64,000 nt of DNA from Candidatus Anstonellales archaeon (GTDB taxonomy: Archaea; Micrarchaeota; Micrarchaeia; Anstonellales; CG1-02-47-40): the NCBI GenBank assembly GCA_038869735.1, contig JAWCQO010000004.1, positions 12,455-76,454 on the forward strand. The letters are read 5' to 3'. A program made the translations under genes and the position numbers. The notes below the pieces were generated by a model, which searched no databases, was not told the DNA's origin, and saw only the letters and a program-made list of their open reading frames with translations. Numbering within the stretch: the first letter of the stretch is position 1; each line of letters starts with the position of its first letter. Of the stretch, positions 7,991-29,505 are shown one piece after another.

Positions 7991-8224
7991 TATCCTAATA
8001 AAATAATATTACTATGTTACGTCGATTAAGTTTTTTTCTAATGACGCTTTACGCTTGGCATTGCTTACTCTCTTTCATTACTCTCTCCCATTTTTGGTTA
8101 TTAGAAATTATCTCCCTTTCTGTTGAGAGGGGCAAAAAACAAACTTTTTTAAAGTTAAAAAAGAAAATAATCCCACCAGCCACTTCTAAAGCTTTAAACT
8201 CCTATATAAAAAAGGTGCAGAATT

Positions 8225-10768
8225 ATGGAAGACCAAACGGAAGAAAAAGAAGAAAAGCCTTCCTTCTTTAGAAGCCCACTTGTTATTCTAATGGCTGGAA
8301 TAGTAATTTTAGCTTCCATAGCTTATTTTCTTTCAACATTCCTACCCGATTTTTTTGGTTTAGCACAAACAAAACTTGAAGCACCAACACTCCTTAGAGC
8401 TGAGCCTATCTCTGGAGGTATAAAACTTTCCTGGAATGCAGCACCGGCTGTTCCCGACAAATACGTAATCTATAGAAGCACAACTCGTGGAGTTTTGGGC
8501 ACCAGAATTGGAGAAGTTCCATCAAGACTTACTTCATATATAGACCTCCAGGTTTCGCCCGGTAACACCTACTATTATGTAGTAAGATCCTCCCTTGCAA
8601 ACGGAAAAGAAGATGAAAACCTAAATCAGGCTTTTGCAACTTATTCCGGAACAGGTATGTTAGCAGCTCCTTCTTCACTTTCAATCTTAATAAATGGAGG
8701 AAAAACTCACACAAACTCATCTACTGTTATGCTATCCTTATCTGCTGTAAATGCAGATAAGTGCAGGTTCAAAAATGAAAAATCTGATTGGTCCAGCTGG
8801 GAGCAATTTTCATCCACCAAGCAATGGACGCTCTCTCCAGGTGACGGAGCAAAGCAGGTCTCTTTTCAGTGCATGAATCCCTTTGGTGCAGAATCCAAAG
8901 ACGTTTCTGCATACATTACGCTTGATACAGTTCCTCCAGCAATCAAAATATACAAATCAGAAAAAATTCAACGAACAAGAAAATTCAACTTAACCTTTTC
9001 TGTTAAAGACGACACTTCTACGAATCTTGTGTGTAAGGGTTATATAAATGGCTGGGAAACCGACATAAGAACCAAGCCAGAAGCAAATAATACTGTTATT
9101 TTTACGGCCCTCACACCCAAAAATTTAGTCTATGTAAGGTGTTATGATGAAGCAGAAAATTCAGTAGAAAGCCCAATCTCCATATTTGAGGTTGATCCCT
9201 CCCTCTTACAGAATGGGACCAGAATAAAGATAAATGAGGACATGCCTCAAACCAGAAGTATCGCAGTTGAGCTATCGTTATTCTCGCAGGATGCGTATGA
9301 GTGTAGACTGAAGAACTCAGGAGAAACTTTCATTGATTGGGAGCCATACAAGACAAAAAGAAGCTGGACTCTAACATACGGAAATGGAATAAAGGTTGTT
9401 TATTACCAATGCAGAGATATTTTCGGTCAATTGGTTGGCGAAGCACAGGACGACATAATACTATTAAGATCAAATGATGGCCCACGCGGCGGGGGTAGTA
9501 GAAGTGAAGAAGGAGGAGAGGTAGGAGGTACAAGAAGCTCAGGTAATTATACTATTACTATTCCCAATCCCTCTGACCGCCTTCTTTTATTCCTGATAAA
9601 TAATGGGGCCATTTACACCAACTCCAAAGAGGTTATTTTGAATCTTTATCCGAATCCAGTTAGGTATGCCTCTCTTCCACTTTACTGTAGATTCAAAAAC
9701 AACCACACAAACTCAGAATTCTCCTCGTGGTTACCATATACTTCTTCAATTAGATGGAATCTTGATTGGTCAGCCAACCGGAGCATTTTCCCCCAACAAC
9801 CACTTAATAATTACACGGTCCTATACGAGTGCGTCTGGGAATCCAACATAACTGAAAATGGCCAGGACTCAATAATCTATGACCCAAGCGTTCCACAACG
9901 ACCTACTAATCTTTCGGCTACATCTCTTCCTGGAGGCGATATATACCTTTCATGGAGTGGTAGTATACCCTCTTATTCCTTAAGTGGCGAGACACCTTCA
10001 CCAATCATAAAATACAACATTTACAGAAGAGAGTACTTCTCCTCTCGTCAGCCTTCTCCTCTCTTTAATCCCCCCATTTCAAATGCAATAACAAATATTG
10101 AGCAACTTATTAGAGGTTCAATTTTTGCTTTTGAAGAGAAAAAAACTGACGAGTACTTACCTCTTGGATTATTTTTCAAGATTGGTGAATCAAGTTCATT
10201 AGATTGGCTAGATTCAACCAAGTCAATGCAAAACCCTCCACTCAACGGACTTAAGTATGAGTATGTTGTAAAAGCAGAAAACCAAGCAGGAACCGAATCA
10301 GATGAAAGCAACATAGTAACTGCAATCTCAGATTCAACAGCACCAACCATTACTGTTTATTCACCTCAAAATGGTTATATCTATCAACCAGAAAGAGAAA
10401 ATATCGAGTTGCGTTTTAGAGCAACTGAGACGTCTTCACCACCAATATCGTGTGCATACACTCTATTGTCTCCTCCAATAAGAACTAAACCACCATGGCC
10501 GATGCTGAAAACCTATTCGCTGCCTCCTCTTCAATCAGGTAATGAATACCGCGAGTCTCTCAAAGAGAAATTGGAACTTCCTAAGCCCCTGAATTCTACT
10601 ATTACATATTATCTCTCATTAGAATGCAAAGACAGCATAGGTAATAAAATTAAAGAGGAGATAACTTTTCATGTGACTCCTTCAGACCGTACAAGAACCA
10701 AGGACTCAGGCAATTTCCCAACCACTGAAAAACTAACTGGACAAGAACCTGAAAAGCTTGCTTCGTAG
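8225..10768 (+). CDS. Large N-terminally anchored cell-surface protein with a fibronectin-III-like domain and a triplicated Cys-containing module
   Basis: 847 aa. N-terminal TM helix VILMAGIVILASIAYFLSTF. FN3-like segment (IKLSWNAAP...YVIYRS...GNTYYYVV). Three copies of a roughly 45-aa module, CRFKNEKSDWSSWEQF...WTL...QC / CRLKNSGETFIDWEPY...WTL...QC / CRFKNNHTNSEFSSWLPY...WNL...EC. Ribosome-binding site GGTG at 8213-8216. Confidence 0.6.
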   Translation: MEDQTEEKEEKPSFFRSPLVILMAGIVILASIAYFLSTFLPDFFGLAQTKLEAPTLLRAEPISGGIKLSWNAAPAVPDKYVIYRSTTRGVLGTRIGEVPSRLTSYIDLQVSPGNTYYYVVRSSLANGKEDENLNQAFATYSGTGMLAAPSSLSILINGGKTHTNSSTVMLSLSAVNADKCRFKNEKSDWSSWEQFSSTKQWTLSPGDGAKQVSFQCMNPFGAESKDVSAYITLDTVPPAIKIYKSEKIQRTRKFNLTFSVKDDTSTNLVCKGYINGWETDIRTKPEANNTVIFTALTPKNLVYVRCYDEAENSVESPISIFEVDPSLLQNGTRIKINEDMPQTRSIAVELSLFSQDAYECRLKNSGETFIDWEPYKTKRSWTLTYGNGIKVVYYQCRDIFGQLVGEAQDDIILLRSNDGPRGGGSRSEEGGEVGGTRSSGNYTITIPNPSDRLLLFLINNGAIYTNSKEVILNLYPNPVRYASLPLYCRFKNNHTNSEFSSWLPYTSSIRWNLDWSANRSIFPQQPLNNYTVLYECVWESNITENGQDSIIYDPSVPQRPTNLSATSLPGGDIYLSWSGSIPSYSLSGETPSPIIKYNIYRREYFSSRQPSPLFNPPISNAITNIEQLIRGSIFAFEEKKTDEYLPLGLFFKIGESSSLDWLDSTKSMQNPPLNGLKYEYVVKAENQAGTESDESNIVTAISDSTAPTITVYSPQNGYIYQPERENIELRFRATETSSPPISCAYTLLSPPIRTKPPWPMLKTYSLPPLQSGNEYRESLKEKLELPKPLNSTITYYLSLECKDSIGNKIKEEITFHVTPSDRTRTKDSGNFPTTEKLTGQEPEKLAS

Positions 10769-11769: not shown

Positions 11770-12906
11770 TTGTTTTTCAAAGGCAACATTAAAGAAACAT
11801 TTTTAAATCTTTTAGTAGCATATGATGTTGGCGATCCAGTTATGGATAGTTTGATAAAATCGGTAATTGGTGAGCGAGAGCCCGCTCAAAACGAAGTATT
11901 CGGCTCTGACCAAATTAAAATTGTGACTGTAGGAGTTGGCGGTGCAGGAAATAACACGATAAACCGCCTTATACGTGCAGGCGTAAAAGGAACAGAACTC
12001 GTTGCTGTAAATACAGATCGACAGCACCTCAATCAAATACACGAAAAAGCACACAAAGTCCTTATTGGAAAAAGCATTACTAAGGGTTTGGGTGCAGGCG
12101 GATATCCAGAAACAGGTGCAAAAGCCGCAGAAGTTGATAGGGCACTTTTGGAGAAGGAACTTGAAGGTGCGCACTTAGTTTTCCTCTGCGCAGGAATGGG
12201 TGGCGGGACAGGAACAGGAGCAGCTCCGGTGATAGCTCAGATTGCAAAGGAACAGGGCGCAATCACCGTTGCAATGGTTACCTACCCATTTAACCTTGAA
12301 AGAGCACGAAAGCTTAAAGCTGACGAAGGAATTGCAAATCTAAGAAAAAACGTAGACTCTGTAATCATTCTTGACAATAATAGATTGGTAAAGCTAGTTC
12401 CCAATCTTCCAATGAACGAAGCTTTCTCAGTTGCAGATGAAATTCTTGCGAAAGCAATTGGAGGACTCGTATGGACAATTACGCAGCCTTCATTAATAAA
12501 CATAGATTTTGCAGATGTGCGTGCAATTGTTCAGGGAGGAGGAGTTGGATTTATTGCAGTTGGAGAAGGCAAAGGGACCGATAAGGTCAGAGGGGCTGCT
12601 GAGGGTGTGCTTCGCAATAAGCTGTTGGATGTAGATTACGAAGGCGCAAACGGAGCACTCATCCACATATCTGGAGGAGCAGACCTTACGCTTGGTGATG
12701 CGATAAAGGCAGGAGAGATAATAACAGAAAAGATGGACACGCAAGCCAACATAAAATGGGGAGCACGTTTGATACCTGGCTATGACGGAAAGTTAGAAAT
12801 AGTAGCTATAGTAACAGGAGTCAAGGGCGCCTCGGTGCTGGGCATGTCCTTTGAAGATGTCTCAGCAAAAAAGGTTACTTACGACGATATAGAAATAATC
12901 GGGTGA
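11770..12906 (+). CDS. ftsZ: Cell division GTPase FtsZ (paralog 1)
   Basis: Tubulin/FtsZ motifs [13 protein letters not shown] and [13 protein letters not shown] (T4 loop), plus NTD. Start may instead be the Met at 11842. An AT box TATAAAAA lies at 11749-11756. Confidence 0.9.
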
Positions 12907-12907
12907 G

Positions 12908-13978
12908 GTGACTATAATGCTTGAAGGATTTTTGCATTCTGCCCTTGAACACAACAACCCTCCAAACGAAGATGCAGTAGGAGACAATGACATAAGGATA
13001 GCAGTTGTAGGAGTCGGTGGTGGCGGTTGCAATACCATTCATCGCCTTATGCAATCAAACCTTAAAAGTGCAACCACAATTGCAGTTAACACAGATCATC
13101 TCCATCTACGAAGTATATCGGCTCACAAGAGAATCTTAATAGGCCAATCGATAACAAAGGGTCTTGGTGCTGGGGGTTTTCCAGAGGTAGGACAAAAGTG
13201 TGCAGAGATATCAAAAGACAAGCTTTCTGAAGTGCTATCCGAAAATGACCTTGTTTTCCTCTGCGCAGGAATGGGTGGCGGGACAGGAACAGGAGCAGCT
13301 CCTGTAGTAGCACAAGTTGCAAAGGAACAGGGCGCAATAGTAGTTGCTATTGTTACATACCCCTTCAATCTGGAGCGTATAAGAATACAAAAAGCCCAAT
13401 GGGGACTTTCCCATTTGACGAAGGTATGCGATACCGTTGTGGTAATTGACAATAACCGGCTAGTCCAATATGCACCAAATATTCCGATAAATGATGCATT
13501 TAATTTAGCAGATAACATTACTGGAAGAGCAGTTAAGGGAATCTGTGACACAATAATGTTTCCGTCTCTCATGAATATTGACTATGCAGACGTAAAATCA
13601 GTAATGGAGGAAGGCGGAGTTTCACTTATCTCTGTTGGCGAAGGAAAGGGACCGGATAGAGTTGAGAAAGTTGTAAAGAGTACTCTTGAACACCCTCTTC
13701 TTGATGTTGACTACGAAGGAGCAAGGGGAGCTCTTTTACATATCGGAGGCGGTTCCAGCCTAACACTCGGAGAAGCAATAGAGATTGGCGAAAAGCTAAC
13801 TGAAGCATTTGACAAAAATGCAAATGTCAAAATGGGAGCAAGACTGACTCCAGAATACGGGGAGGATGTTTCCGTGACGGCTATAGTCACAGGCCTAAAA
13901 CAGACTCCTTCAATATTCAGTCAGCAAACAACAGACGCCGACGAGGTAAAGGGATTAGAAGAGCTATCTCTCCTATAG
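12908..13978 (+). CDS. ftsZ: Cell division GTPase FtsZ (paralog 2)
   Basis: GVGGGGCNTIHRL and [13 protein letters not shown]. Follows paralog 1 by 1 nt. Likely ATG start at 12917, preceded by GGTGA at 12905-12911. Confidence 0.9.
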   Translation: MTIMLEGFLHSALEHNNPPNEDAVGDNDIRIAVVGVGGGGCNTIHRLMQSNLKSATTIAVNTDHLHLRSISAHKRILIGQSITKGLGAGGFPEVGQKCAEISKDKLSEVLSENDLVFLCAGMGGGTGTGAAPVVAQVAKEQGAIVVAIVTYPFNLERIRIQKAQWGLSHLTKVCDTVVVIDNNRLVQYAPNIPINDAFNLADNITGRAVKGICDTIMFPSLMNIDYADVKSVMEEGGVSLISVGEGKGPDRVEKVVKSTLEHPLLDVDYEGARGALLHIGGGSSLTLGEAIEIGEKLTEAFDKNANVKMGARLTPEYGEDVSVTAIVTGLKQTPSIFSQQTTDADEVKGLEELSLL

Positions 13979-14334: not shown

Positions 14335-14979
14335 ATGAAATCAGCAGTTCTTTTTTCTGGCGGTAAGGATTCAACTATGGCAGCTTTTTTCTCATTGTTT
14401 CAAGGATGGAATACAACTCTAATTTGCGTCCAATCAGAAGAGGATTCTTATATGTTTCATCATCCAAATACCGACTTTTGTAAATTACAAGCGCACTCAA
14501 TGGGCTTGCCTATACACTATATACGAACAAACAAGGCGCGCGAGTTGGCTGACCTTAAAGCTCATCTTGAAAAGATCAAAACAGATTGCATAGTATCTGG
14601 AGCTGTGGCTTCAGAATATCAAAAACAACGCATAGACGTTATAGCTGAAGAACTAAACATCCCTTCTTTTTCTCCGTTATGGCACAAGGGAACCCAAATT
14701 CTGGAGGAAATTGCCCAATATCTTGAAATCTACATCGTTCACGTAGCTGCCGATGGTTTAGGAAGTGAGCTGCTTGGAAAAAGGCTGACCCTTACCGAAA
14801 TATATAATCTTTCAAAACTAAACATCCATCCTTTTTTTGAAGGTGGAGAAGGAGAAACTTTTGTTTCAGATGCTCCGTTTTTTAGAGAACGATTGGAAGT
14901 ACTAGCGTGGGATTACCTTTGTGGTTCAACTCATTTCACCGCTAAGATATCAAAGATACGTGTTCATAAAAAATTCTAA
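14335..14979 (+). CDS. PP-loop ATP pyrophosphatase, diphthine-ammonia ligase (Dph6/MJ0570)-like
   Basis: N-terminal SGGKDS PP-loop at residues 8-13 and a 214-aa length typical of the archaeal DUF71/Dph6 N-domain. Confidence 0.6.
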   Translation: MKSAVLFSGGKDSTMAAFFSLFQGWNTTLICVQSEEDSYMFHHPNTDFCKLQAHSMGLPIHYIRTNKARELADLKAHLEKIKTDCIVSGAVASEYQKQRIDVIAEELNIPSFSPLWHKGTQILEEIAQYLEIYIVHVAADGLGSELLGKRLTLTEIYNLSKLNIHPFFEGGEGETFVSDAPFFRERLEVLAWDYLCGSTHFTAKISKIRVHKKF

Positions 14980-15671
14980 CTCACCCTTTCCAATCGATCT
15001 ATAATATCATCCAACTCGCTTCCATACATTTCCTTTATTTTGACAGTGGCTTGGACGTTAATGTTCACAGGTATCTCTTTTTTTATCTTTATCCCATATC
15101 TGCTTCCGTTTTGGGTGTCTACGAATATTTCCTGCCTAATTGGGAGAGTCTGTCCAAACTTAAACTCAGTAACCTGTCCTGTTGTGGAAATCGCAGTAAC
15201 CTTCTCAGGCAGCTTCAGATTAAATAAAACAGGAATCCTAAAATTTGGGGGGAATACTTCATCCAATGGTATCTCTTCTTCGATTTGCACAGTCGTTCTA
15301 ATGGGGGATGAAGATAAAATCACGTCCTTTGCCTGAAGCGCTTTTAAATCAGCAATTATCGCAGGAAGCTCAGACCTAATTTTTCCACTTCCTCCAATAT
15401 CAACGATGTTTAGTACAAGAGATATCAAGGCAAGTACAAAGGCTGCCCCAGCCAGGATTTCAGCTTTTTTCAAATTATCTTTGCTCTCTATTCTTTTTTC
15501 GCCATACTCCCTTTTGATAGGAGCAGAAAAATCGCTCTTACTGCCAGATAATGATTGGGGGATTTTTGCTACTCCTAACTTTTTATCAGTTGAGCTGTCT
15601 TTTCTTTTAGATTGTCCATACAATATGCCGGCAGGTTGATCCGAATATTCCTCCTCTGCCACAAACACCAC
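14976..15671 (-). CDS. Bitopic membrane protein; last gene of the paralog-array operon
   Basis: 231 aa. Acidic/basic disordered N-terminal region, a single TM helix (AEILAGAAFVLALISLVLNIV), and a C-terminal domain of roughly 130 aa. Lies 13 nt downstream of the preceding operon gene. Confidence 0.5.
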   Translation of the reverse strand: MVFVAEEEYSDQPAGILYGQSKRKDSSTDKKLGVAKIPQSLSGSKSDFSAPIKREYGEKRIESKDNLKKAEILAGAAFVLALISLVLNIVDIGGSGKIRSELPAIIADLKALQAKDVILSSSPIRTTVQIEEEIPLDEVFPPNFRIPVLFNLKLPEKVTAISTTGQVTEFKFGQTLPIRQEIFVDTQNGSRYGIKIKKEIPVNINVQATVKIKEMYGSELDDIIDRLERVS

Positions 15672-15684
15672 CTCAAAATCAAAA

Positions 15685-16683
15685 TCATATTAATTTTATA
15701 AGCCCTCTTCCAAGCTCAGCAAGATCTGCTGAAAATAAGGCAGACGTGCTTCTAATAAAGGTAAACGTAATTATCAATGCCACTACTGGAAAAAATGTTG
15801 ATTGAAGATACAAAATAGAAACGTTTTCGCCTATATGAAAGATAAGACTGGTCCAGCTTGGAAGATTCTGTCCAACGTCCCTTGCTATTAAATTGTAACC
15901 AGCGATATCATCGGGGCAAATTCTTCTATCATATATTTCAACGTTACCAATACTGGTACAGAACTCATCAGCGCTACCTTGAATCGCTACGAGAATAACA
16001 TAAGACATAGGGAAAACAAAGAAGCACCCTATAGCGAGGGCAATAAGAAAACCTCCCAATCCACGCGAGATTGGAAAGACTCTAAGTATAAGGCCTGCTG
16101 GAAGAAACAAGTTTAGCATTGAGACCTCAAAGAATACAAGTAGATTGTATATAATATATTGAAACATAATAATCCACAAAAGCTTCTTTGTAACGTAATC
16201 ACCGAGGCTTACAACAGACGAAATGACTGTTGAGGATAGATTCCATCCTTCTGCTCCAGAAGAATCCACAGAAAATGTTTCAAATGGTTTCACAAACAAC
16301 ATTATAGAATAAATACTCGAATATGCTAAAGTTTCACATTCAATAACGTTTCTAATATATCCTTTTGCTAAATCAAATGGCCCAGTAACGGGTCCGGGAT
16401 TAACGTTTCCTCCGGTTACAGAATAAATCACAATACCAGATATTTCGTATGAAATATTCCACAAAAATGATATTACCCCTATTATGCAAAAAACAATAAG
16501 AAACCCTACCAATACCTGAGAATACTCACTCTTTGCCCATTTCTTAACGTTTTGTAGGTTTAATCCTATTGAAATCATATAGATAACTGTAGTTATAAAA
16601 AATGTCACTAGCAAAGCAAGAATATTGATAACATACCAATCCTGGAAGAAAACCCGGTGAAATATCTCTATTGGATTTAGCAC
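15685..16683 (-). CDS. Polytopic membrane protein, paralog 1 of six (unassigned family)
   Basis: 332 aa, multi-TM. Shares the N-terminal block K.WAKSE, the core motif LPAGLILRVFPISRGLGGFLIALAIGCFFVFP, and a C-terminal ...GLIKLI tail with the five upstream genes. Confidence 0.6.
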   Translation of the reverse strand: MLNPIEIFHRVFFQDWYVINILALLVTFFITTVIYMISIGLNLQNVKKWAKSEYSQVLVGFLIVFCIIGVISFLWNISYEISGIVIYSVTGGNVNPGPVTGPFDLAKGYIRNVIECETLAYSSIYSIMLFVKPFETFSVDSSGAEGWNLSSTVISSVVSLGDYVTKKLLWIIMFQYIIYNLLVFFEVSMLNLFLPAGLILRVFPISRGLGGFLIALAIGCFFVFPMSYVILVAIQGSADEFCTSIGNVEIYDRRICPDDIAGYNLIARDVGQNLPSWTSLIFHIGENVSILYLQSTFFPVVALIITFTFIRSTSALFSADLAELGRGLIKLI

Positions 16684-17760
16684 TTATATCATCCTCAATA
16701 TAGTTGATAAATCCATTTCCTCTCCAAGAAGCATCGTAAAGTCCCGGATAAAAGGAATAAAAACAGCAAAATTTATTGCTGGAAGAAATACACTTGCAAT
16801 AAATATATAAAAAGCAAGGGACACTATATAAAATAGCTTTATTGATATACTTCCGCTATAGCGGTTTATATTTATGCCTTGATAACCATCTCTACTCAAG
16901 TTTTCTGCTTCCCCATAATTCCCTTGCGCAATTCTCCCTCCCTCTACTTCTTCCCATATCCCCCTGTATTCCTGACTGGTTTGAGGCTCATCTAATCTTT
17001 CAAATATCCCTGTCTGACTTCCGCGGATTATAAAGTCATTTATCACCAACATTGCAGGATAAATAAGAAAGACTCCAAATGAAAAAGCAATAAGTGAGCC
17101 CCCAAAAAGTCTAGTTGGCTCAAATGCGCGGAGCAAGACCCCGATTGGAAACAGATACGTAAGCGTAGCTATAGAGAGATACTCCAAAATCTTTATTTGC
17201 ATAATGACAAATAATAGAGAGGTAGCTATTCCTTGAGCTACAATCGAGAATATTTGAATTAATATGTTTAGACCAGCCGCCGGTCTTAGAGAAAAGCCCA
17301 TCCCCAAAGGGATGGCATTATGATGAACCCCCGCCATAGTTTGAAAAACCCAATACACAGCACCAACATATACTAAGGCTTGCAGATTCTTTTTTCTTAT
17401 GTATCCCAAGTAATCATATGTGAGGTCATAGAAATTCATATTTTGAAATCGAGCGTCATTGTATCTTTCTCCAAAGATTAACCCCATCTTAGACGGCTTT
17501 AATTCGCACATCAGACCGACTGTTCCAACAGCAACAACAGCAATTGCAGCTGTCACTAAAAGTTGAACGAGCTCTGCCCTACTCCAAACCTCAAGTTGCT
17601 GATTTCTAAAGAATTTTGATGCCATAAATATTAGCGAGAGAATCCCGCTAGATATTAAGACTGCAAGTGCAACGTTGACTCTCCAATCCTGCCAGAAAAA
17701 AGAATAAGTTGAAGCTATCTGCCCGCCTGTCATGCATACATTAAATACAAAATCCGCCAT
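16684..17760 (-). CDS. Polytopic membrane protein, paralog 2 of six
   Basis: 358 aa. Core motif FPIGVLLRAFEPTRLFGGSLIAFSFGVFLIYP. C-terminal tail ...LSTILRMI. Abuts paralog 1 with no gap. Confidence 0.6.
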   Translation of the reverse strand: MADFVFNVCMTGGQIASTYSFFWQDWRVNVALAVLISSGILSLIFMASKFFRNQQLEVWSRAELVQLLVTAAIAVVAVGTVGLMCELKPSKMGLIFGERYNDARFQNMNFYDLTYDYLGYIRKKNLQALVYVGAVYWVFQTMAGVHHNAIPLGMGFSLRPAAGLNILIQIFSIVAQGIATSLLFVIMQIKILEYLSIATLTYLFPIGVLLRAFEPTRLFGGSLIAFSFGVFLIYPAMLVINDFIIRGSQTGIFERLDEPQTSQEYRGIWEEVEGGRIAQGNYGEAENLSRDGYQGININRYSGSISIKLFYIVSLAFYIFIASVFLPAINFAVFIPFIRDFTMLLGEEMDLSTILRMI

Positions 17761-17763
17761 CGC

Positions 17764-18912
17764 TTATAACACCCTCAATATATCTCCTATATTAACGTCT
17801 GTTCCAAAGTGTCGCGCAAACTCCCTTATAGCAGTAAATGTTACGTATATAATCAGCACCGGAATCATAACTCCAACTATAAAAATAAAGTAGGCCGCAT
17901 TCTTGATAATTTCAATCAAAGCATTTAGAAGAACAAAAAATATCCCCACCCCTACAAATCCAACGTTCCCAAAAATAATGCTTCCAATCAAAGCTATAAT
18001 AGCTCCAGAAGAAAGTGTTAAAATAAGACGTTCGAAAAAATCACCCCCTAAATGGGTTCTAAAATAACTTACTCTGCCATCAGGCGTATCTATACTGCTT
18101 CTTTCATAATACCTTTCAACTGCGCTTGCAGAGACGTTTATCATAGCTGGATAGACTACATAAAATCCCAGTGCGATAGCAATAAGAGCTCCACCCAATG
18201 CCCTTGTAAAAGAAAAAGTCCGAAAAAATATACCAATAGGAAGTAAAAATGACATAAGATACTTCTTTGAAAAGCAAAGAACAAATAGATTCACAAACCA
18301 TATCCCCCACGTCGTTGTCATCATTCCCACAACCATGTTGAGCATATCAACAATCGGTTTTAGAACATAAGACATACTAAATGAAAAGCCACCCAGCAAT
18401 CCAATAGCGCTTCCAATTACTATTTGAGTACTAGATAACACTGTTACTAGAAAATTTACTATAGTGGCCACCATCAAATCAGCACTCAACGTTATCAAAA
18501 TTGCATTTGACAACTCAAGTGCCCTATCAATGTTATTTGTCTCATCCCCGACTCCGAAGCTCTTAGTGAGTATATCTACCCCTACGTTTGTTATAATCAA
18601 AAAGACGATAATTACACCAGAAAAGATAATTTGTTCAAGAGTATTTTTTGCCCATAAAATACTGGTTTGGTTATCCAGAAGATGCCCCCCCATGTAAACA
18701 AGGGCGCAGATAGAGAGAGAAATAGCAAGGGAGATTAATGTGATGACAGGCCATTCAACATTCGTAAACGCAATACAACTTTCTCTGCTTATCCCTACTT
18801 CTCTCAAATACCGCCTTGTCTGGTTCATCTGGTCCTCCCAAATGCCGGTAGAAGATCCTAAGCCTATAAGATATATGAGAAATAAAACTGTGATAATAGC
18901 CCTTATCTTCAT
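17764..18912 (-). CDS. Polytopic membrane protein, paralog 3 of six
   Basis: 382 aa. Core motif LPIGIFFRTFSFTRALGGALIAIALGFYVVYP. C-terminal tail DVNIGDILRVL. Confidence 0.6.
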   Translation of the reverse strand: MKIRAIITVLFLIYLIGLGSSTGIWEDQMNQTRRYLREVGISRESCIAFTNVEWPVITLISLAISLSICALVYMGGHLLDNQTSILWAKNTLEQIIFSGVIIVFLIITNVGVDILTKSFGVGDETNNIDRALELSNAILITLSADLMVATIVNFLVTVLSSTQIVIGSAIGLLGGFSFSMSYVLKPIVDMLNMVVGMMTTTWGIWFVNLFVLCFSKKYLMSFLLPIGIFFRTFSFTRALGGALIAIALGFYVVYPAMINVSASAVERYYERSSIDTPDGRVSYFRTHLGGDFFERLILTLSSGAIIALIGSIIFGNVGFVGVGIFFVLLNALIEIIKNAAYFIFIVGVMIPVLIIYVTFTAIREFARHFGTDVNIGDILRVL

Positions 18913-18913
18913 C

Positions 18914-20074
18914 TCATATCAACCTTGTAAGACCGGCAATCTCTACGTCTCCTCCAAGAAGAGGCGACAATATTTTTATACTGGCTATTGTAGACATAAT
19001 TGCGACAAAAGGCATGAATAGGGAAAAAATCATCATCCTAGCTACTGATTCAAAGACGCCCCCTTCACCAATTATCCATGCACTACCTCTATATGTCCTT
19101 AAAAAAGCGTGAGGGACGTCTACAAGAGACCTAAAAATTTCCAAAATGTGTTGAATCAATGACCTAAGAATTCGAAGATATCCTTCCATTGTTGGTTGAG
19201 ACTGTTCTCCAACCAAATTTATTCGAGTAGGTTCTATCTCAAAAAGTGATTCGGGAGTAGGCATACTTTCGCGCGTAATATTACCACCCCCTCCTATCTC
19301 AAAAGGATTGATTAATCCTAATCGGTCGATGTTTAAGGGATTAAGCGTTCTTCCACTATATCCAATGAGTATATATCCTGATAGCGCATACATAAATGGA
19401 TAAACAAAATAAAAACCAACGGCAATAGCAATCATGAGCCCCCCAAGTCTTCTTGTTAGAAAAAAGTTACGAAGGAAAAATCCAAATATAAGAAAAATAG
19501 GGAAAATAGTCTGCCATATAATATCCAGTAAATACTCCTGAAATCGTAAAGCAATCATCATTTTATATAAAATATCTATTGCTATTAGAAGAGCATCCGA
19601 AACCATTGACAATGCGGCAAATGGCTTAATTGAGAGATCTGACATAGGTATAATTGTCAGCCTTAAACCTACTCCTATATCTGAGAGAAACATAAACGTT
19701 GAATTTATCCAAATAATCTGCCCTGCCATCTGCTTTGAGGAATTGAAAATTATCCCCAAATAATTTTTAGCTAACGAGACTTGACACGGCTCGGTGTTCG
19801 TACAAACAACCGAAGATAAGGGATCAGCTGCCAATATAAGCCTGGCGTATCTATCTGCTCCACTATTAAACGCTTCAGCTGCAAATGTAATTAGTATCAA
19901 AATTATGACCGATAAAAACATATGAGCTATTTCACTTCTCGCATAAGCTTCCAACGACTCAATAGAAAGCATTTTGCTTATCGCATAAGCAATAGCAACA
20001 AGTGATATGGTTGAGACAATCGCAATACCAAGCAAAAACCAATATCTTCCAATCAGAATTTCGGCAATGAGCAT
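18914..20074 (-). CDS. Polytopic membrane protein, paralog 4 of six
   Basis: 386 aa. Core motif FPIFLIFGFFLRNFFLTRRLGGLMIAIAVGFYFVYP. C-terminal tail LGGDVEIAGLTRLI. Confidence 0.6.
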   Translation of the reverse strand: MLIAEILIGRYWFLLGIAIVSTISLVAIAYAISKMLSIESLEAYARSEIAHMFLSVIILILITFAAEAFNSGADRYARLILAADPLSSVVCTNTEPCQVSLAKNYLGIIFNSSKQMAGQIIWINSTFMFLSDIGVGLRLTIIPMSDLSIKPFAALSMVSDALLIAIDILYKMMIALRFQEYLLDIIWQTIFPIFLIFGFFLRNFFLTRRLGGLMIAIAVGFYFVYPFMYALSGYILIGYSGRTLNPLNIDRLGLINPFEIGGGGNITRESMPTPESLFEIEPTRINLVGEQSQPTMEGYLRILRSLIQHILEIFRSLVDVPHAFLRTYRGSAWIIGEGGVFESVARMMIFSLFMPFVAIMSTIASIKILSPLLGGDVEIAGLTRLI

Positions 20075-20077
20075 TTA

Positions 20078-21037
20078 CTACCCCATTTTTTGGCTTAGAA
20101 ATTTATTCATGCTCTTTATAAATGTCATCGTAATCAGCATTGATAGACCGGGAAGAAATATCCCCTGCATCAATATTACTGATAACTTTACAAATAGTTT
20201 CATTACTAACTCATAATTCCATAAAACCCTCTCGGTTATTCTTTGATGGTATTCCCCGTCTTGGTTTTCTTGAATGCTTTGTCTATAATCACTAATCCAA
20301 TCATACGGAGCAATTGTCTCTTGTCTGGGGTCTTGACCTGCTGGTGGAGGAAGAAAATCAATCACACCATCTCTTGCATCGATGTACCTCATTATGTTGT
20401 AATGCATGACATATGTAAGAGGAAATACGAAATAAAACCCAAAAGAAGCGGCAATGAGGAGTACCCCGGCATCCCTAGTGGGAGGGAAAATCCTAAGAAT
20501 TATACCTGCAGGCAAGACCAAAGTTAGGGTCGTTGCCTTTATTAACTGGAGACCAATACTTTGTGCTACCAGTGAAGAAGCAAAGGGTGAGATGACGAAC
20601 ACAACCCATTCAAAGATAGATGCTAAAAGCGATAAAAAACTCAACGGTTGGAACCTTATGCTCCAGCCACCCCCAGCTCCAAAGTGGAGCGCTGCCCCAC
20701 CCATCCATTCAAAAAGAATCACTAACCCCTCCATTTGAACAAGTGTCGGAATCGTAAGCTGAGAGATCATTATGTCAAGATATTTCAAGGCGATTTCAAA
20801 GTAATCCACCCCAAATATACTCATACTTACTCCGATTGCCATATTAGCAAGAAAATACGTCATAAGAAGCAAAACCACTGAAAAGAAAACCTGGTATGTC
20901 TCGAGAGTAGCAAAAGCTTCCAACTCAGATTTTCTAAATATCTGAGCTAACATATAAATAAGCGAAATCGAAGTGACCATAACTAATATACTTATTGCAA
21001 TCATCTCAAACTGGCTTCCTCCAATCTCCAAAGCCAT
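20078..21037 (-). CDS. Polytopic membrane protein, paralog 5 of six
   Basis: 319 aa. Core motif LPAGIILRIFPPTRDAGVLLIAASFGFYFVFP. The C-terminal tail diverges from the other five. Confidence 0.55.
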   Translation of the reverse strand: MALEIGGSQFEMIAISILVMVTSISLIYMLAQIFRKSELEAFATLETYQVFFSVVLLLMTYFLANMAIGVSMSIFGVDYFEIALKYLDIMISQLTIPTLVQMEGLVILFEWMGGAALHFGAGGGWSIRFQPLSFLSLLASIFEWVVFVISPFASSLVAQSIGLQLIKATTLTLVLPAGIILRIFPPTRDAGVLLIAASFGFYFVFPLTYVMHYNIMRYIDARDGVIDFLPPPAGQDPRQETIAPYDWISDYRQSIQENQDGEYHQRITERVLWNYELVMKLFVKLSVILMQGIFLPGLSMLITMTFIKSMNKFLSQKMG

Positions 21038-21051
21038 TAGTCAATCACCAC

Positions 21052-22317
21052 CTATACTAGCTTTGAAAGCCCAAATATCTCAACTTCTCCCCCAATTGAA
21101 GCCGCAATACTTCTGTAAGCTGTTACAGTTAAAATTATCTCTATAACTACCCCAACAAATACAAAAGATAGGCTCCACCCAATCTCATTCATCGTTTCTA
21201 CCGTTGCATAGTAAAAAATAACAGAACTCCTCCACAGGGACGCAAGGGAAGAGACGTATCTTAAAGTAAATCTTATATAATTCATTGATATATCGATGAG
21301 CTGTTCTGTTACTTCAACAACCGCGCTTAACAGTCGCCAAGCTCCACAAATTATTCTCCTAAAAAATCCCCAATTTTGAGGCTGCCCACTGCACCATCCG
21401 CCACTTTCATTACTTCTCTCATCCTCGTGATTTTGATAAATGCGTCTGCTTGCTTCTCTCCCTTCCTCAACAACCGTATTCATAAAATTCCCTGCTTGCG
21501 GGTTTGGTTCAATGGTAAGGGGGAATTCGTACTCTCTTATCTGAGGCATTTGGGTGTTAATATATAGTTCTTCGACTACTATCACGGAGAGTGGGAAAAC
21601 AAAATAAGCTGTAAAGGCAAAAGCTATAATACTAGAACCTATCCTCCTTGTTATAAAAAAAGCTCTTAAAAAAAGCCCAAGGGGAAGGAAGACGCTTAAC
21701 ATACTATCCTTAAAAAACAATAATAGCACTTTTTGAAGAGAAATAAGACCAATTGCACCTCCAACAAGGTCCGTGATCAAAATATTACCTTCTGCAACCG
21801 GTACGACTCCCACACCAGGTCCAAACGAAATAGAAAATCTCATTATCGAATGAGGAGGAAAAAAAAAGGTTGAGTGTAATGTGGATACCATGCCCAGCAC
21901 TATCTCGTTTAAATTCAGTGATATGTACTTACTAACTAGCATCCAGAACATAGAATCAAGAAAGATTGAAGGCCGCATATAAATGTCCGCGCTACCACCA
22001 ATAATCTGGCTTATCATTGAGAATAGGCCCAGGGTAAAAAAAGTGATTATTACTATAACTCCAGTTATAAAAACTTCATAAAGCTCCATCTTTGCCCATG
22101 ACTTAATATTTGGAACTGCTAAAAATTCAGACAACATATATGCTATTGCAGTGGCGCCTACCCCAATTAAAAGTGCGGCACCAATCGGAGCAGCAAATCC
22201 TTGGAATCTCCCAATAAAATCTTCAACATTTTCGTCAACGGTTTGTTGCGCATCTACGCTTTGGATCAACAACAAAGAAAACACAAAAAATAAAGACGCT
22301 AAGCTTCTAATCCTCAT
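21052..22317 (-). CDS. Polytopic membrane protein, paralog 6 of six (first gene of operon, has N-terminal signal peptide)
   Basis: 421 aa. Signal peptide MRIRSLASLFFVFSLLLIQSVDAQQ. Core motif LPLGLFLRAFFITRRIGSSIIAFAFTAYFVFP. C-terminal tail IGGEVEIFGLSKLV. Confidence 0.6.
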   Translation of the reverse strand: MRIRSLASLFFVFSLLLIQSVDAQQTVDENVEDFIGRFQGFAAPIGAALLIGVGATAIAYMLSEFLAVPNIKSWAKMELYEVFITGVIVIITFFTLGLFSMISQIIGGSADIYMRPSIFLDSMFWMLVSKYISLNLNEIVLGMVSTLHSTFFFPPHSIMRFSISFGPGVGVVPVAEGNILITDLVGGAIGLISLQKVLLLFFKDSMLSVFLPLGLFLRAFFITRRIGSSIIAFAFTAYFVFPLSVIVVEELYINTQMPQIREYEFPLTIEPNPQAGNFMNTVVEEGREASRRIYQNHEDERSNESGGWCSGQPQNWGFFRRIICGAWRLLSAVVEVTEQLIDISMNYIRFTLRYVSSLASLWRSSVIFYYATVETMNEIGWSLSFVFVGVVIEIILTVTAYRSIAASIGGEVEIFGLSKLV

Positions 22318-22385
22318 GTTTTTACCCCTTCTAGCTTAGTAACGAAGTTCTATTATTTAAAAACTAATGTCGCTACAATTTACTT

Positions 22386-25266: not shown

Positions 25267-28200
25267 ATGAGATACAGAAGTATACTCATTTCAACACTTA
25301 CTCTATTACTTTTTTTATCTTCATTACCACTATCAGAAAAAAACATAACAAGACTCCAGGTTTATGTTGATGGACTTACTGTTCATGCTCAACTTACGAA
25401 AGTGGATATGGGCTCATCATTTCGGGTTTATCCTGAAGAATTGGAGAGACAGGTTAGGTCGTTTTTAAGTGAAAATAGACAAGAACAAAGACAGAACGAA
25501 CAGATCCCGTTTTTAGTTCAACGCACAGAACCACTTGCTGGACAAAGTCTTGATTTCTTTCTATATAACCGAGAAACCAGTGAGTATCAACCAGTTTTCG
25601 GATGTAGCGGTCTTCTTACAGATGAGCGCGGAATAGCGAATTGCACTGTAAGCGAGATTTCCGGTTCAAAAACGTGTTCTGTTATAAACGTGTCTTATTC
25701 GGGAACAACAGCCTATGAGCCGTCTACTACTACTGGAATAGTTTGTGATGAATCAAACAACGGCCTCTCTGCATTTGGTCTTGCTACTGAAAACTACCTT
25801 AGGAATAGGCAGACCTACATATGCCTACCCATCTTCCTAATTCTAGGGCTCCTCCTTGCTTCTCTCTACTATTCAGGAAAGAACCCCTTAAATATTTTTG
25901 ATATAACCACTCCGCGGCTTCCAAGACCAAAAAAACACCGCATCACTCCAATCATTATCCGCTCACACCTAATTAGCAATATGTTGATGAATATGAGTCT
26001 CCTTCGCAGAGCTCAACTGGATATCATCAACGCAGCCGATGCGATTGTCCGGATTCTTCCTTCTGATAATACTCTTCATAGCGACCTTCTACAAGCTTAT
26101 AGTGAAATACGATCTGCCAGACGTATCCCCCCCCATATTCGTTGTGCCGCCATCGCAGCGCTCTTTTCTTCTGGACCTCGAGCAGCAGAGACGATTCTAA
26201 GAAATGCATATCAAAGAGGTGCAGTTAGAAGCATACAATCTCTAAAAAAGAACGAAACAGATACATATCTTTCGAGTATACTCTCAAGATCCGGATTAGA
26301 TAAGGAAACCCAACAAACATTAATGCGCTTTCACAAATTTATTCAAGATCGTAGTAGTGCTGCGATAGTAACTTATGAGAAACACGAAAAGCTGAAAGAA
26401 ACGTATGGATATAGCGGTTCCATCGCCAAGTTACTCCTATCCCTTTCTTATAATAGTTACCGGTTAGACCGCACCTTGCCTCGAACAGTAGATAAAACTG
26501 TTCTAGCCACCGTAGGAAGAGTTCCGATTGTTGGCCCTCCATTAGCATCAGTTATTCGCAGCGCCGCTAAAGTTGCATTATTGCCTATAAGGACTCCCCT
26601 AAATTTTGCTATCCTTCCTCTTGAAGTTGTAGGACAGACTAAGATGGCTGTCAAATCAGCTAAAAGCATTCTAAACATTTTTTCAGGTTCTTTGGATAAC
26701 AAACGAGTGGGTAATTTTCATGATGCGCTTTCTCAAATCAAAAACATTTGCAGACATATAACACCAGAGACAGTCAGAGAAGAGGTTATCTCCTACGCAA
26801 TCAGAAAAATAAACGAAGCTTATTTTGGGAGTTCGATTGATGAAGAGACTAGAAACCGCCTTCTAAATATAGTGGGTGCACGGTTAGCGAGTCCCCTACG
26901 AAATGGCGACTACGATGAAGCGTATAGGAGAGCATTATTAATTATGGCTAGATATAATCTAGTTGATCAGCAAACTATTGACTCAATCAAGGCTGTTGTA
27001 CGCGATATAGATAGAAGGTATTATTCGTATATAGGAAATAGAGATAATAGTCTAGATGCGGGCATACACTACTTGAGTGATGTGCATGCTCTTATACGTA
27101 AATTTCAAACTTCCCACCCACAAGAGCAAGTATTCTTCCTAACAACAAGATTTTATGACCCTCAAAATCCGACCACAGAACGAGCAACTGCTGCATTCCA
27201 TTACTTCCTTAGTCTTCAGGCCATTCAACGTTTACGCTCTGGTATAGACACTAGAACTACATTTGCAGACATCTACACTGAATTACATAGAAGAGAGAGT
27301 CAGGAACTTGAAAGAGAAGCTAACTCTGTTGCACAAATAGTCGCAATTCGGTACACTCTTTCTCCTAACGCTCCACAAAGACGACAAACTCGAAACCCAC
27401 ATGATGAATTCCTTCATTTTCTTTTAAACCGAATTGAAATAAAAATCAACAGAATGCGTCCTGCAGAAGTTTATCGCGACTTTTCCCAAGTTCTCATGGA
27501 GAATGCTACAATTTTGAGGTTTTATCAAGACCACATTTTACCGTTACTAGCAAAGACTAGTTCCGGAGCAAACCTTTCAGAACAAGAGCTGTATCAAGAG
27601 TTGATGAAGCATGGGGTTGATTGGAGAACAGCTACAAGGCTTATTTATACTCCACCAAGCAACCTAACACAAAATAGCACGCCTGAGTCCGAAAGAATTG
27701 GGAGCGGAATTGTTCGAGGATGGATAGTAACTGGAGACGGCACCTTCAAACCACTTTTTATAGAGGGCATGTATCACACCTTTGTAACAACAATTTTTGG
27801 TTCGTCCTCTCCCCTATTGGATGAAGGCCTGACCAGGACAAACAGCCAAGGCCAACGTATATCTGTAATGGGAGCTTCAGATGCAGATAAAATAGTCTCC
27901 GTTTACAGCAGGGATAACAATGATTTGTTAGCAACACATGCTGGAGGACCCATAAGAAGACTGTTCTATCAAATTCAGCAGCCGTTTCTAGCCGGTGCAA
28001 AAGTTATCTTCGCAGCAAAAGAAGAGTTTGAAACAGTCTTTGCTCTCCAAGCCCTCGAAAGGAAAGCGTATAAGGATATAGAGCGAAATTACAACCTCGG
28101 AACGTATTTTTCTCAAGTGCCAACGCTCCGGCAGATCGAAGAACAGATAGCTAGCGAAAGTGACAAAACTATGCGCCGAAAGCTAGAAAGAAAACGTCAA

Positions 28201-29505
28201 GACATGATACTGGAAATCTTAAATAACCGAGATATTAGCAGGACATTTAAAGATGCCTATGAGGCCTCACTACTATACGACTTAGTATTTCTAAAAAACG
28301 AGGTAGCAAACTTTATGAGAGACCCGCGAGGAGGAAGTTCTTCCTATGGTATAAGACAAGCAATCCACACCGGATATCATACAGGTCAATCCTTTTTTGA
28401 ACCTGCAAGTTATTTTCTAACACGCGGATACGTTATAGGTGAAGACTACTTGCGTTCCCTCCTATGGTTGCCTGAAAGACTAGGCCGACTTATAACGTAC
28501 TTCTCCCGAGCCCCAATGGCACTGCAATCCGGCTATCCTTCTGTTTATGAAGGAACCCATGAACCTGTTCGCCCCATGCGAGGGCGGGCACTTATGGATT
28601 TTTTTTCACCTTGGAAAAATCTTGATCGTCTATCGAACATACGTCTCCCAGAAATACATCCGACAAGAGGCTTGACACCTGTCGGTTGGTCTTATTTCGA
28701 CGAATACAAAAGAACTCAAGCTCTTCGTTGGCTTGTGCCCGGAAGAACACTCCAGCAACGTCTTAACATACATGAATCTTATTGGGATAACTTTCAAAAC
28801 CTGTACGGTACTCAAGAGATGCATAACATCAACGAGATATTCAATAATATTGTTGGAGACACAACCATTGACTTATTTAGAAATGTACGTCAACAATCAA
28901 GGTGGTGGCATTGGTTCTTCCAAAGGGGGGAGAATGTCACCTTACAGCTCACCGGTTATCTGCTTGCCACCGGTCCTGAATCAGCCCTGAGGACACCCGA
29001 ACTCTATATCAATATTTATACTACTAATATATACAAAGCTTACCCTGTCGGGATGATGTATGTAGATGACGACCCATCAAAATTTACGACACAGCATCAT
29101 CTAAATGCGAGACTTGCAAATAGAATAATTCGTGATTATAATTACCTTGTAGACCTCTATCCAGATATCAAAGAAGATGCACTCAGAAACATATGGAGAC
29201 GGGATAAAATGTCAGCTGAGGAACTTGAATCAACCCGCAAACACGAATACAGTAATTATGAGTTTAGGATATTTTCTCCGTTTTTCCTTGCAAAATGGCT
29301 TGCTCCAAAAACCTATAATCAAGCTCTCGATAGTGCGGTTCTGAGAAGTATTGATGCAAGAACAGCGTATTACGAAAATATTAATCTCTATACTTCACTA
29401 TTATTCCCTCCCTTGCTCTTATCTATGGGAGCTGAAAACTTAGGATATTGGATACGTAATGTAGCAAGAAGAATACGAGCAAGAAGAACACACGCAGGAC
29501 CTTGA
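25267..29505 (+). CDS. Giant (1412 aa) membrane-anchored protein of unknown function
   Basis: Signal peptide MRYRSILISTLTLLLFLSSLPLS. Extracytoplasmic Cys- and sequon-bearing domain of roughly 150 aa. Single TM (YICLPIFLILGLLLASLYY) followed by basic residues. Arg- and Tyr-rich C-terminal region of roughly 1200 aa. I recognise no known catalytic motif (no HExxH, no Walker A). Composition is Arg > Lys, unlike neighbouring genes. Confidence 0.6.
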   Translation: MRYRSILISTLTLLLFLSSLPLSEKNITRLQVYVDGLTVHAQLTKVDMGSSFRVYPEELERQVRSFLSENRQEQRQNEQIPFLVQRTEPLAGQSLDFFLYNRETSEYQPVFGCSGLLTDERGIANCTVSEISGSKTCSVINVSYSGTTAYEPSTTTGIVCDESNNGLSAFGLATENYLRNRQTYICLPIFLILGLLLASLYYSGKNPLNIFDITTPRLPRPKKHRITPIIIRSHLISNMLMNMSLLRRAQLDIINAADAIVRILPSDNTLHSDLLQAYSEIRSARRIPPHIRCAAIAALFSSGPRAAETILRNAYQRGAVRSIQSLKKNETDTYLSSILSRSGLDKETQQTLMRFHKFIQDRSSAAIVTYEKHEKLKETYGYSGSIAKLLLSLSYNSYRLDRTLPRTVDKTVLATVGRVPIVGPPLASVIRSAAKVALLPIRTPLNFAILPLEVVGQTKMAVKSAKSILNIFSGSLDNKRVGNFHDALSQIKNICRHITPETVREEVISYAIRKINEAYFGSSIDEETRNRLLNIVGARLASPLRNGDYDEAYRRALLIMARYNLVDQQTIDSIKAVVRDIDRRYYSYIGNRDNSLDAGIHYLSDVHALIRKFQTSHPQEQVFFLTTRFYDPQNPTTERATAAFHYFLSLQAIQRLRSGIDTRTTFADIYTELHRRESQELEREANSVAQIVAIRYTLSPNAPQRRQTRNPHDEFLHFLLNRIEIKINRMRPAEVYRDFSQVLMENATILRFYQDHILPLLAKTSSGANLSEQELYQELMKHGVDWRTATRLIYTPPSNLTQNSTPESERIGSGIVRGWIVTGDGTFKPLFIEGMYHTFVTTIFGSSSPLLDEGLTRTNSQGQRISVMGASDADKIVSVYSRDNNDLLATHAGGPIRRLFYQIQQPFLAGAKVIFAAKEEFETVFALQALERKAYKDIERNYNLGTYFSQVPTLRQIEEQIASESDKTMRRKLERKRQDMILEILNNRDISRTFKDAYEASLLYDLVFLKNEVANFMRDPRGGSSSYGIRQAIHTGYHTGQSFFEPASYFLTRGYVIGEDYLRSLLWLPERLGRLITYFSRAPMALQSGYPSVYEGTHEPVRPMRGRALMDFFSPWKNLDRLSNIRLPEIHPTRGLTPVGWSYFDEYKRTQALRWLVPGRTLQQRLNIHESYWDNFQNLYGTQEMHNINEIFNNIVGDTTIDLFRNVRQQSRWWHWFFQRGENVTLQLTGYLLATGPESALRTPELYINIYTTNIYKAYPVGMMYVDDDPSKFTTQHHLNARLANRIIRDYNYLVDLYPDIKEDALRNIWRRDKMSAEELESTRKHEYSNYEFRIFSPFFLAKWLAPKTYNQALDSAVLRSIDARTAYYENINLYTSLLFPPLLLSMGAENLGYWIRNVARRIRARRTHAGP

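Follow-up and report, generated by a model that had tools for sequence, protein, structure and literature searches.

Six paralogous membrane proteins encoded in tandem in Micrarchaeota and their likely kinship with VirB6/CedA-type channels

What do six adjacent genes for mutually similar membrane proteins do in the chromosome of a Candidatus Anstonellales archaeon (Micrarchaeota, DPANN)? The question is raised by a stretch of 64,000 nt of its DNA, here called the window, whose positions serve as coordinates throughout except where a related locus is named by its L number. An earlier inspection of the letters alone (the sequence-only reading) had singled out these genes, here g1 to g6, as a candidate for an undescribed system. 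By our analysis it is likely that a Ced/Ted-like machine related to type IV secretion is fixed in this chromosome and that the six paralogues form its membrane channel, of the VirB6/CedA type, and its platform for pilus assembly; the assignment is made because the fold search, the gene neighbourhood in other lineages, the gene fusions and the profile comparison agree. Taking into account these ties to VirB6/CedA-type channels, the system is probably not of an entirely new kind; the array probably encodes the six-paralogue channel of a machine that descends from type IV secretion systems. The array is found throughout the Micrarchaeota sampled, in every complete locus examined (65 of 65), and no description of the six-gene array was found in the literature searched on type IV secretion-like proteins of DPANN archaea and Micrarchaeota or on membrane-protein clusters.

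Composition and conservation of the array

The listing of open reading frames (ORFs) gives seven consecutive genes on the minus strand at 14976-22317. In the direction of transcription these are g1 (21052-22317, 421 aa), g2 (20078-21037, 319 aa), g3 (18914-20074, 386 aa), g4 (17764-18912, 382 aa), g5 (16684-17760, 358 aa), g6 (15685-16683, 332 aa) and g7 (14976-15671, 231 aa), the first six being the paralogues of positions 1 to 6 and the seventh a bitopic protein 13 nt downstream of g6. The gaps between them, taken from g1 to g7, are 14, 3, 1, 3, 0 and 13 nt. The g1 protein is 100% identical to NCBI QXW70_01565, a 'hypothetical protein' of a Candidatus Anstonellales archaeon, and an orthologue of position 1 was recognised in 65 loci.

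The relationship among the six was examined by BLASTP. All 15 possible pairs aligned, with 38-77 bits and 22-51% identity, usually over 150-415 residues, and g7 gave no match to any of them. The alignment of the six paralogues has nine invariant columns, including G214, R218, R224, G227 and P242 (g1 numbering). Considering that the invariant columns are polar or structural, the similarity exceeds what shared hydrophobicity would produce, and by sequence comparison g1-g6 are to be regarded as true paralogues. The sequence-only reading had reported six consecutive minus-strand paralogues of 319-421 aa, 0-14 nt apart, with which the ORFs, the gaps and the 15 aligned pairs agree; it had also considered that the resemblance might be low-complexity transmembrane (TM) similarity lacking conserved polar positions, and the nature of the invariant columns speaks against this.

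Three conserved blocks had been described by eye, and all of them are real, although two are not shared by every paralogue. Four paralogues (g1, g4, g5 and g6) show a clear W-A-K-x-E block; in g2 (AFATLE) and g3 (AYARSE) it is degenerate, and only its Glu is near-invariant. All paralogues but g2 have the conserved C-terminal tail; g2 ends in KFLSQKMG, and the absence of the tail at position 2 holds across the 65 loci, in which every position has a tail consensus of its own. The layout is well seen in g1, where a signal-peptide-like N-terminus (MRIRSLASLFFVFSLLLIQSVDA) is followed by a TM1-SWAKMELYE-TM2 hairpin, the core loop with R218 and R224, and the tail IGGEVEIFGLSKLV. The tails of g3, g5 and g6 read LGGDVEIAGLTRLI, LGEEMDLSTILRMI and ADLAELGRGLIKLI, respectively, and g3 has two Cys in the loop after TM2, beside a PCHI motif conserved among its orthologues. 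A cleavable signal peptide had been ascribed to the first gene; the N-terminus of g1 is indeed signal-peptide-like, and that of g4 is so too. When the alignment was extended to 123 sequences of the family, G198, R208, G211 and P226 were invariant and E48, R202 and G374 were each at least 90% conserved (g3 numbering).

None of the scans assigned these proteins to a family. Pfam, NCBIfam and PHROG returned no informative match for the seven window proteins and nothing informative for ten unusually long homologues, the Pfam scan of the 123 alignment members was equally uninformative, and a sequence profile search of the PDB with the family gave no match. The family had been called unassigned on the letters alone, and so it stayed: the six did not match one characterised family, and GspF/TadC, FtsX, CAAX/PrsW, rhomboid, ABC-2, Mrp/Nuo and EcfT, which had been considered for them, appeared in no scan. 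The naming sources call family members 'hypothetical protein' (Micrarchaeota). A word-indexed homologue search with the six paralogues returned 4 matches only, and it was the exhaustive search of representatives that revealed the family, with 3,077 representative clusters at E ≤1e-3 and 617 at E ≤1e-30. A scan of one genome per species gave 194 relatives of g3, which corresponds to at least 194 species-level genomes.

For the comparison of loci we took the best 80 of the 194 g3 relatives, 65 of which are not cut by a contig end; the 80 are labelled Micrarchaeota, unclassified archaeon or, in three metagenome-assembled genomes, 'ainarchaeum sp.'. ORFs were called mechanically and searched with the hidden Markov model (HMM) of the family, and orthologues were assigned by best BLAST hits. 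Exactly six tandem copies were present in each of the 65 complete loci, and the order g1-g2-g3-g4-g5-g6 was recovered in 54 of them, the other 11 being ambiguous only at position 4 or 5. The median intergenic distance within the arrays was 1 nt. Around a constant membrane core, paralogue length is very variable at positions 1, 3 and 5, reaching 1,464 aa; the loci L038, L062, L067, L068 and L080 have single paralogues at these positions enlarged to 750-1,464 aa. A copy number and an order that are frozen across the sampled phylum are what is expected of a hetero-oligomer with one copy per subunit, and the gene arrangement thus points to a fixed hetero-oligomer. The sequence-only reading had looked to synteny in related genomes, which came out as this constant array, and of the two options that it had left standing the hetero-oligomeric machine is strengthened by the copy number and the order, while the rapidly diversifying transport family loses ground, as discussed below.

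The seventh gene does not belong to the conserved unit. The N-terminal region of g7, about 70 aa long, is charged; one hydrophobic span (residues 72-90) separates it from an ectodomain of about 140 aa, in agreement with the earlier description of the protein as bitopic. No Pfam, NCBIfam or PHROG match was obtained for g7. Its homologues were found only in three close relatives (L001, L003 and L016), so that the conserved unit consists of six genes and not of the seven of the operon first proposed, and g7 is, on this distribution, a lineage-specific accessory gene. Its overall layout (short cytoplasmic N-terminus, one TM helix, ectodomain of about 140 aa) is one that we take to resemble that of VirB8.

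Evidence for a probable VirB6/CedA-type channel

The first indication comes from the genes that precede the array. Between two and four small genes stand directly before the array in L045, L052, L057, L061 and L079; each encodes a signal peptide and two hydrophobic helices with a short charged loop between them. The product of one, L045:6421-6783, scores above the Pfam cut-offs for both the TrbC/VirB2 pilin (PF04956, 32.1 bits versus 27.9) and T4SS_pilin (PF18895, 31.8 versus 26.6), and the others match T4SS_pilin below the cut-off. It was also possible to see the two components joined in one protein: N-terminal pilin-like domains are fused to the array in 17 loci, with domain E-values from 1e-5 to 1e-10. 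Two tandem pilin domains are carried by the second gene in 14 of these loci and one by the second gene in L049, and in L066 and L069 one domain is located on the first gene.

The paralogues themselves resemble the pilin at their N-termini. When six position-specific profiles were compared by hhalign, all TM1-loop-TM2 segments fitted the same helix-loop-helix columns of the pilin, with P values from 1.6e-6 to 1.9e-3, and the reversed-sequence controls gave P ≥0.15. The hairpin of g4 is the most pilin-like of the six (P 1.6e-6) and the only one that reaches a hhalign probability of 90%; g4 is also the only match of the pilin HMM within the window. A channel N-terminus resembling the pilin has been described for CedA and the CedA1 pilin and for VirB6 and VirB2 (Beltran et al., PMC9905601).

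The second indication is an ATPase. After the array, and in the same orientation, L052, L057, L061 and L079 have genes for two membrane proteins of 274 aa and an ATPase of 508 aa. The latter matches DUF87/HerA, AAA_10, P-loop_TraG and TrwB_AAD_bind in Pfam, and its longest PDB alignment was with the VirB4-like protein 4ag5 (E 1.1e-8). A search with the ATPase gave 1,221 matches; the best 120 have 60-95% identity, and the organisms named among them are all Micrarchaeota or unclassified archaeon. The sources label it HerA, ATP-binding protein and, once, 'DNA import protein CedB'. A BLAST cluster that seemed to tie an ATPase to seven loci had merged MCM helicases (L021, L022, L025, L039 and L047) with the true VirB4-like ATPase (four loci), and the MCM links were discarded. 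In one of these mis-clustered cases, L021:24-3176 (+), the MCM helicase gene is split by an intein with a LAGLIDADG homing-endonuclease domain.

The location of the ATPase gene in Anstonellales was obtained from assembly GCA_038849675.1, whose contig JAWCMN010000004.1 encodes a protein identical to g1. Another contig of this assembly, JAWCMN010000002.1, carries a five-gene module (L084:9181-15390) for proteins of 269 aa, the ATPase (P0311), 154 aa, 203 aa, with a faint CdvB_HTH match, and 845 aa. In L052, L057, L061 and L079 the genes that come directly after the array are colinear with this module, in which the four partners of the ATPase have no assigned function; six further loci have the gene for the 154-aa protein just ahead of the array. 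Some lineages thus keep the system in one stretch, and in Anstonellales it is divided among at least two loci. Considering that the array is chromosomal among housekeeping genes and conserved phylum-wide, and that the ATPase is highly conserved, a domesticated core function is favoured over a mobile conjugative element.

A second type of ATPase was detected in a few loci. A T2SSE-family protein (PF00437, E 7e-36) is encoded directly downstream of the array in L008 (14596-15906), L010 (15205-16197) and L012 (14592-15905) and near it in L044 (14131-15702). Pfam labels PF00437 'Type II/IV secretion system protein', and the family also takes in VirB11 from type IV secretion systems.

The third line is structural. 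In the fold search TrwI of R388 (PDB 7o3v; its sequence was taken from NC_028464) ranked first or second for two different paralogues, with scores in the grey zone. This match of predicted folds is weak but replicated, and by itself it is only a lead. All TrwI homologues retrieved carry PF04610, and in several Bartonella genomes a single chromosome encodes two or more different TrwI/VirB6 proteins (B. australis and B. harrusi, for instance, each appear twice), a further case of VirB6 duplication in a host-associated bacterium.

Statements on structure were made from two monomer AlphaFold models, judged by their confidence values and secondary structure. Together with hydropathy, the models give about five membrane spans per paralogue, with helices that extend outward as a helical ectodomain, and a variable region of low confidence after TM4. 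The proteins are polytopic, as had been claimed, with about five spans and long projecting helices instead of six simple spans. From hydropathy, the N-termini, Cys residues, Arg loops and the helix lengths of the models we infer an N-out, C-in orientation with a large external region after TM2, because signal-peptide-like or lipobox-like N-termini stand ahead of TM1 (g1, g4 and many g3 orthologues), because there are conserved Cys in the loop after TM2, and because the TM3-TM4 loops are Arg-rich. This topology would place the conserved Glu, the two Arg and the acidic tail at the cytoplasmic face. VirB6 of Agrobacterium is likewise N-out and C-in, with about five spans and a large external region after TM2.

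Several observations weigh against the assignment. None of the six window proteins (E ≤1) and none of the 123 family members (E ≤10) matched PF04610 (TrbL/VirB6). The hhalign comparison of the family with TrwI and 120 homologues gave a probability of 0.35% over 16 columns, the TrwI profile being narrow (≥51% identity, Neff 3.5). Foldseek against the PDB gave nothing significant, the best match being TTYH2 (E 0.5), with VirB6 at rank 44 (E 2.9). Neither an ATPase nor any module gene is located within the window, where the pilin HMM search also gave no free-standing pilin gene, and the surroundings of the ATPase module in L084 were equally devoid of one. A direct gene link to a pilin, ATPase or module gene exists in only about 30 of the 80 loci. 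The structure of R388 VirB6 is reportedly a homopentamer, so that a six-membered hetero-ring would be without precedent. As to the sequence comparisons, VirB6 proteins are described as diverging past sequence recognition (PMC12102498, PMC9905601). Taking into account that PF04610 membership fails at the sequence level and that the fold scores lie in the grey zone, we call the six proteins 'VirB6-like' and not members of PF04610.

Proposed arrangement and rival explanations

If the six proteins are a channel of this type, their architecture may be proposed as follows. From the N-terminus, located outside, the chain would enter a pilin-like TM1-loop-TM2 hairpin whose loop bears the near-invariant Glu; extensions of the membrane helices would form a helical ectodomain; a TM3-loop-TM4 hairpin would expose a cytoplasmic loop with the near-invariant Arg202, the invariant Arg208 (g3 numbering) and the Gly-Gly pair; and a hypervariable ectodomain would come next, then the final membrane helix and, except in g2, the conserved acidic cytoplasmic tail. 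One copy of each paralogue would assemble into a pseudo-six-fold membrane ring. On its cytoplasmic face the Arg loops and acidic tails would dock a hexameric VirB4/CedB-like ATPase, presumably the one encoded on the other contig alongside the four conserved partner genes, and the variable outer face would meet the envelope and the partner cell. The ring might then recruit a VirB2-type pilin from the membrane and extrude a conjugation-type pilus, or else form a mating channel, through which macromolecules would move between cells. By analogy with Ced and Ted, DNA would be the likeliest cargo, with host-derived material as the alternative.

DPANN archaea are devoid of most biosynthesis and their means of obtaining host material is an open question; for Micrarchaeota we know of no dedicated transfer apparatus that has been established. 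A more far-reaching proposal is that the array encodes an asymmetric hetero-hexameric VirB6-type channel, paired 1:1 with a hexameric VirB4-like ATPase, which would serve as conduit for exchanging cytoplasmic material, namely DNA and possibly lipids, nucleotides or proteins, with host archaea, and which would be the long-sought DPANN-host apparatus, essential for the symbiosis. In this extended form we consider the proposal possible but doubtful.

A different explanation is that the six proteins build a new hetero-hexameric envelope complex outside type IV secretion, for instance one that anchors or assembles the surface layer or large surface proteins, the likeness to VirB6 being convergent. 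It would be consistent with the absent sequence similarity to VirB6 and with the hypervariable ectodomains, whose inserts take single paralogues up to 1,464 aa. The nearest non-housekeeping neighbours also fit it, namely a single-pass protein of 1,400-2,300 aa (18 loci) and a Cys-rich secreted protein or lipoprotein (16 loci). In the window the corresponding genes lie beyond the leucyl-tRNA synthetase gene. The gene at 25267-29505 (+) encodes a protein of 1,412 aa, in which a signal peptide precedes a Cys-containing ectodomain (about 180 aa), one TM helix and about 1,200 further residues, and that at 29550-31019 (+) encodes a Cys-rich lipoprotein-like protein of 489 aa. Both are unannotated and have no Pfam, PDB or PHROG match; their homologues adjoin the array in 18 and 16, respectively, of about 80 Micrarchaeota loci, and the two proteins may belong to the system as well. 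Relatives of the 489-aa protein, Cys-rich, secreted and about 660-1,160 aa long, are also encoded directly downstream of the array in L038, L062, L067 and L080. An envelope complex leaves unexplained, however, a pilin gene directly upstream of the array that passes the Pfam cut-offs, the pilin domains fused in 17 loci, the register of all six hairpins with the pilin, the colinearity of the array with the VirB4-like ATPase module and the ranking of TrwI as first or second for two paralogues, and on balance we regard this explanation as unlikely.

The T2SSE-family gene in L008, L010, L012 and L044 would favour a membrane platform analogous to FlaJ/PilC, driven by a FlaI/PilB-type ATPase and serving a type IV pilus or archaellum-like filament. 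Nevertheless, a PF00437 neighbour fits a VirB6/CedA-type machine equally, given the inclusion of VirB11 in that family, and the association is limited to 4 of about 80 loci. No member of the array family matched T2SSF/FlaJ in the Pfam and NCBIfam scans, and the linked small proteins match VirB2/TrbC pilins and have a signal peptide with a two-helix hairpin, which is not the architecture of type IV pilins. Such a platform is thus very improbable.

Equally remote are duplicated and diversifying solute transporters or channels, each paralogue acting alone on a different substrate: a polytopic helical build in the membrane, a charged loop that is conserved (Arg-x5-Arg, Gly-Gly) and variable external regions would suit them, but the fixed order, the six copies of all 65 complete loci (54 in the same order) with none of the copy-number variation typical of independent transporters, the tight gene coupling, the conserved polar residues at the predicted cytoplasmic surface and not in mid-membrane, the lack of a binding protein, ABC partner or other transporter context nearby and the lack of a transporter-family match in the Pfam and NCBIfam scans do not.

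Known systems and setting of the locus

The VirB6/CedA-type assignment was compared with the systems to which it refers. VirB6/TrbL proteins (PF04610, e.g., R388 TrwI) are polytopic inner-membrane proteins, as are those of the array, and the topology proposed here matches that of Agrobacterium VirB6. In both cases the genes stand beside those of a VirB2-type pilin and a VirB4-type ATPase, for the array in related lineages. The differences are considerable: there is no sequence or profile similarity between the two; VirB6/TrbL is encoded by a single plasmid-borne gene and is said to form a homopentamer, whereas the array has six fixed paralogues, is chromosomal and phylum-wide, and belongs to an archaeon with a single membrane; and the conserved Arg-x5-Arg loop and the acidic C-terminal tail are specific to the array. 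If true, such a channel of six fixed VirB6-type paralogues would offer a natural experiment in the passage from a homo- to a hetero-oligomeric secretion pore. A further likeness is the N-terminal hairpin that resembles the pilin (PMC9905601).

In the DNA transfer systems Ced (Sulfolobales) and Ted (Thermoproteales), CedA/TedA is VirB6-like, CedA1/TedC is a VirB2-like pilin and CedB/TedB is a VirB4-like ATPase (PMC9905601). The array resembles them in the pilin-like N-terminus of the channel, CedA/TedA being likened by the published description, in the cleavable-looking signal peptide of the linked pilins, as in TedC, and in the name 'CedB' that one source gives to a Micrarchaeota ATPase. Ced and Ted have one CedA/TedA gene, in contrast to the six paralogues in fixed order, and the partners of 269, 154, 203 and 845 aa have no assigned Ced/Ted counterpart. 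Considering that the host genome is that of a reduced-genome DPANN archaeon, the role of the array may be interaction with a host rather than DNA repair, unlike Ced and Ted. If the assignment is true, type IV secretion-derived machines in archaea reach beyond these two.

Tandem VirB6 paralogues are known from the vir-homologue type IV secretion system of Rickettsiales, for example virB6-1 to virB6-4 of Anaplasma phagocytophilum (PMC7648143, PMC3556328). The two cases share tandem VirB6-like genes in a reduced genome of a host-dependent organism, very large extensions in some copies (up to 1,464 aa in the array) and system genes dispersed among several loci (for the array, in the window's organism); they differ in that the rickettsial proteins are bacterial VirB6, recognisable by sequence and present in about four copies versus six, and in their independent origin. 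In another DPANN lineage, the giant SPEARE-type surface proteins of Nanohaloarchaeota carry VirB4/TraG-like ATPase domains and a type IV secretion-like action on the host has been proposed; this rests on the ATPase domain in a giant adhesin, and neither a VirB6-like array nor a VirB2-like pilin is reported there (PMC10266531).

The assignment would bring a large unnamed or 'hypothetical' family (3,077 clusters, at least 194 species-level genomes), together with its partners, into one conjugation-related machine. The six channel genes, the pilins, the ATPase and the four partner genes are handles for work in cultured Micrarchaeota, and the family merits a Pfam/NCBIfam model and annotation.

The array is separated from the divergent leucyl-tRNA synthetase gene by 68 nt (22318-22385). 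Counted upstream from the g1 ATG on the minus strand, this region has an A/T-rich, TATA-like box, TTTTTAAATAATA, at 34-46 nt and GGGG at 8-11 nt; they are a candidate archaeal promoter and ribosome-binding site, which would fit a single promoter for the operon. A scan for promoters and terminators of bacterial type is uninformative for an archaeon. At the equivalent place, between the leucyl-tRNA synthetase gene and the first paralogue, L001 has an extra gene of 556 aa without Pfam match (8194-9864, +).

Beyond the leucyl-tRNA synthetase gene this flank comprises the two unannotated genes described above, Trm5 and SecF/SecD, and the other flank has two FtsZ genes and a diphthamide-synthase-like gene. 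The GC content of the array region is 0.37-0.40, and the 2-kb values of the window are 0.33-0.44, mostly 0.36-0.41. The locus looks native, with GC matching the background, as had been stated from the letters, and the array is not considered a mobile element because its flanks are housekeeping genes (leucyl-tRNA synthetase, Trm5, FtsZ, diphthamide synthase) and its GC is that of the background. An ORF of 847 aa at 8225-10768 (+), without Pfam match, is similar in size to the 845-aa protein of the module, yet it is not homologous to it. The two FtsZ genes (11770-12906 and 12908-13978, both +) are adjacent, with a single base between them; the Pfam domains Tubulin and FtsZ_C are present in the first, and both genes match a cluster of flanking genes represented in L008 by two adjacent genes of about 356 aa, with E ~1e-174.

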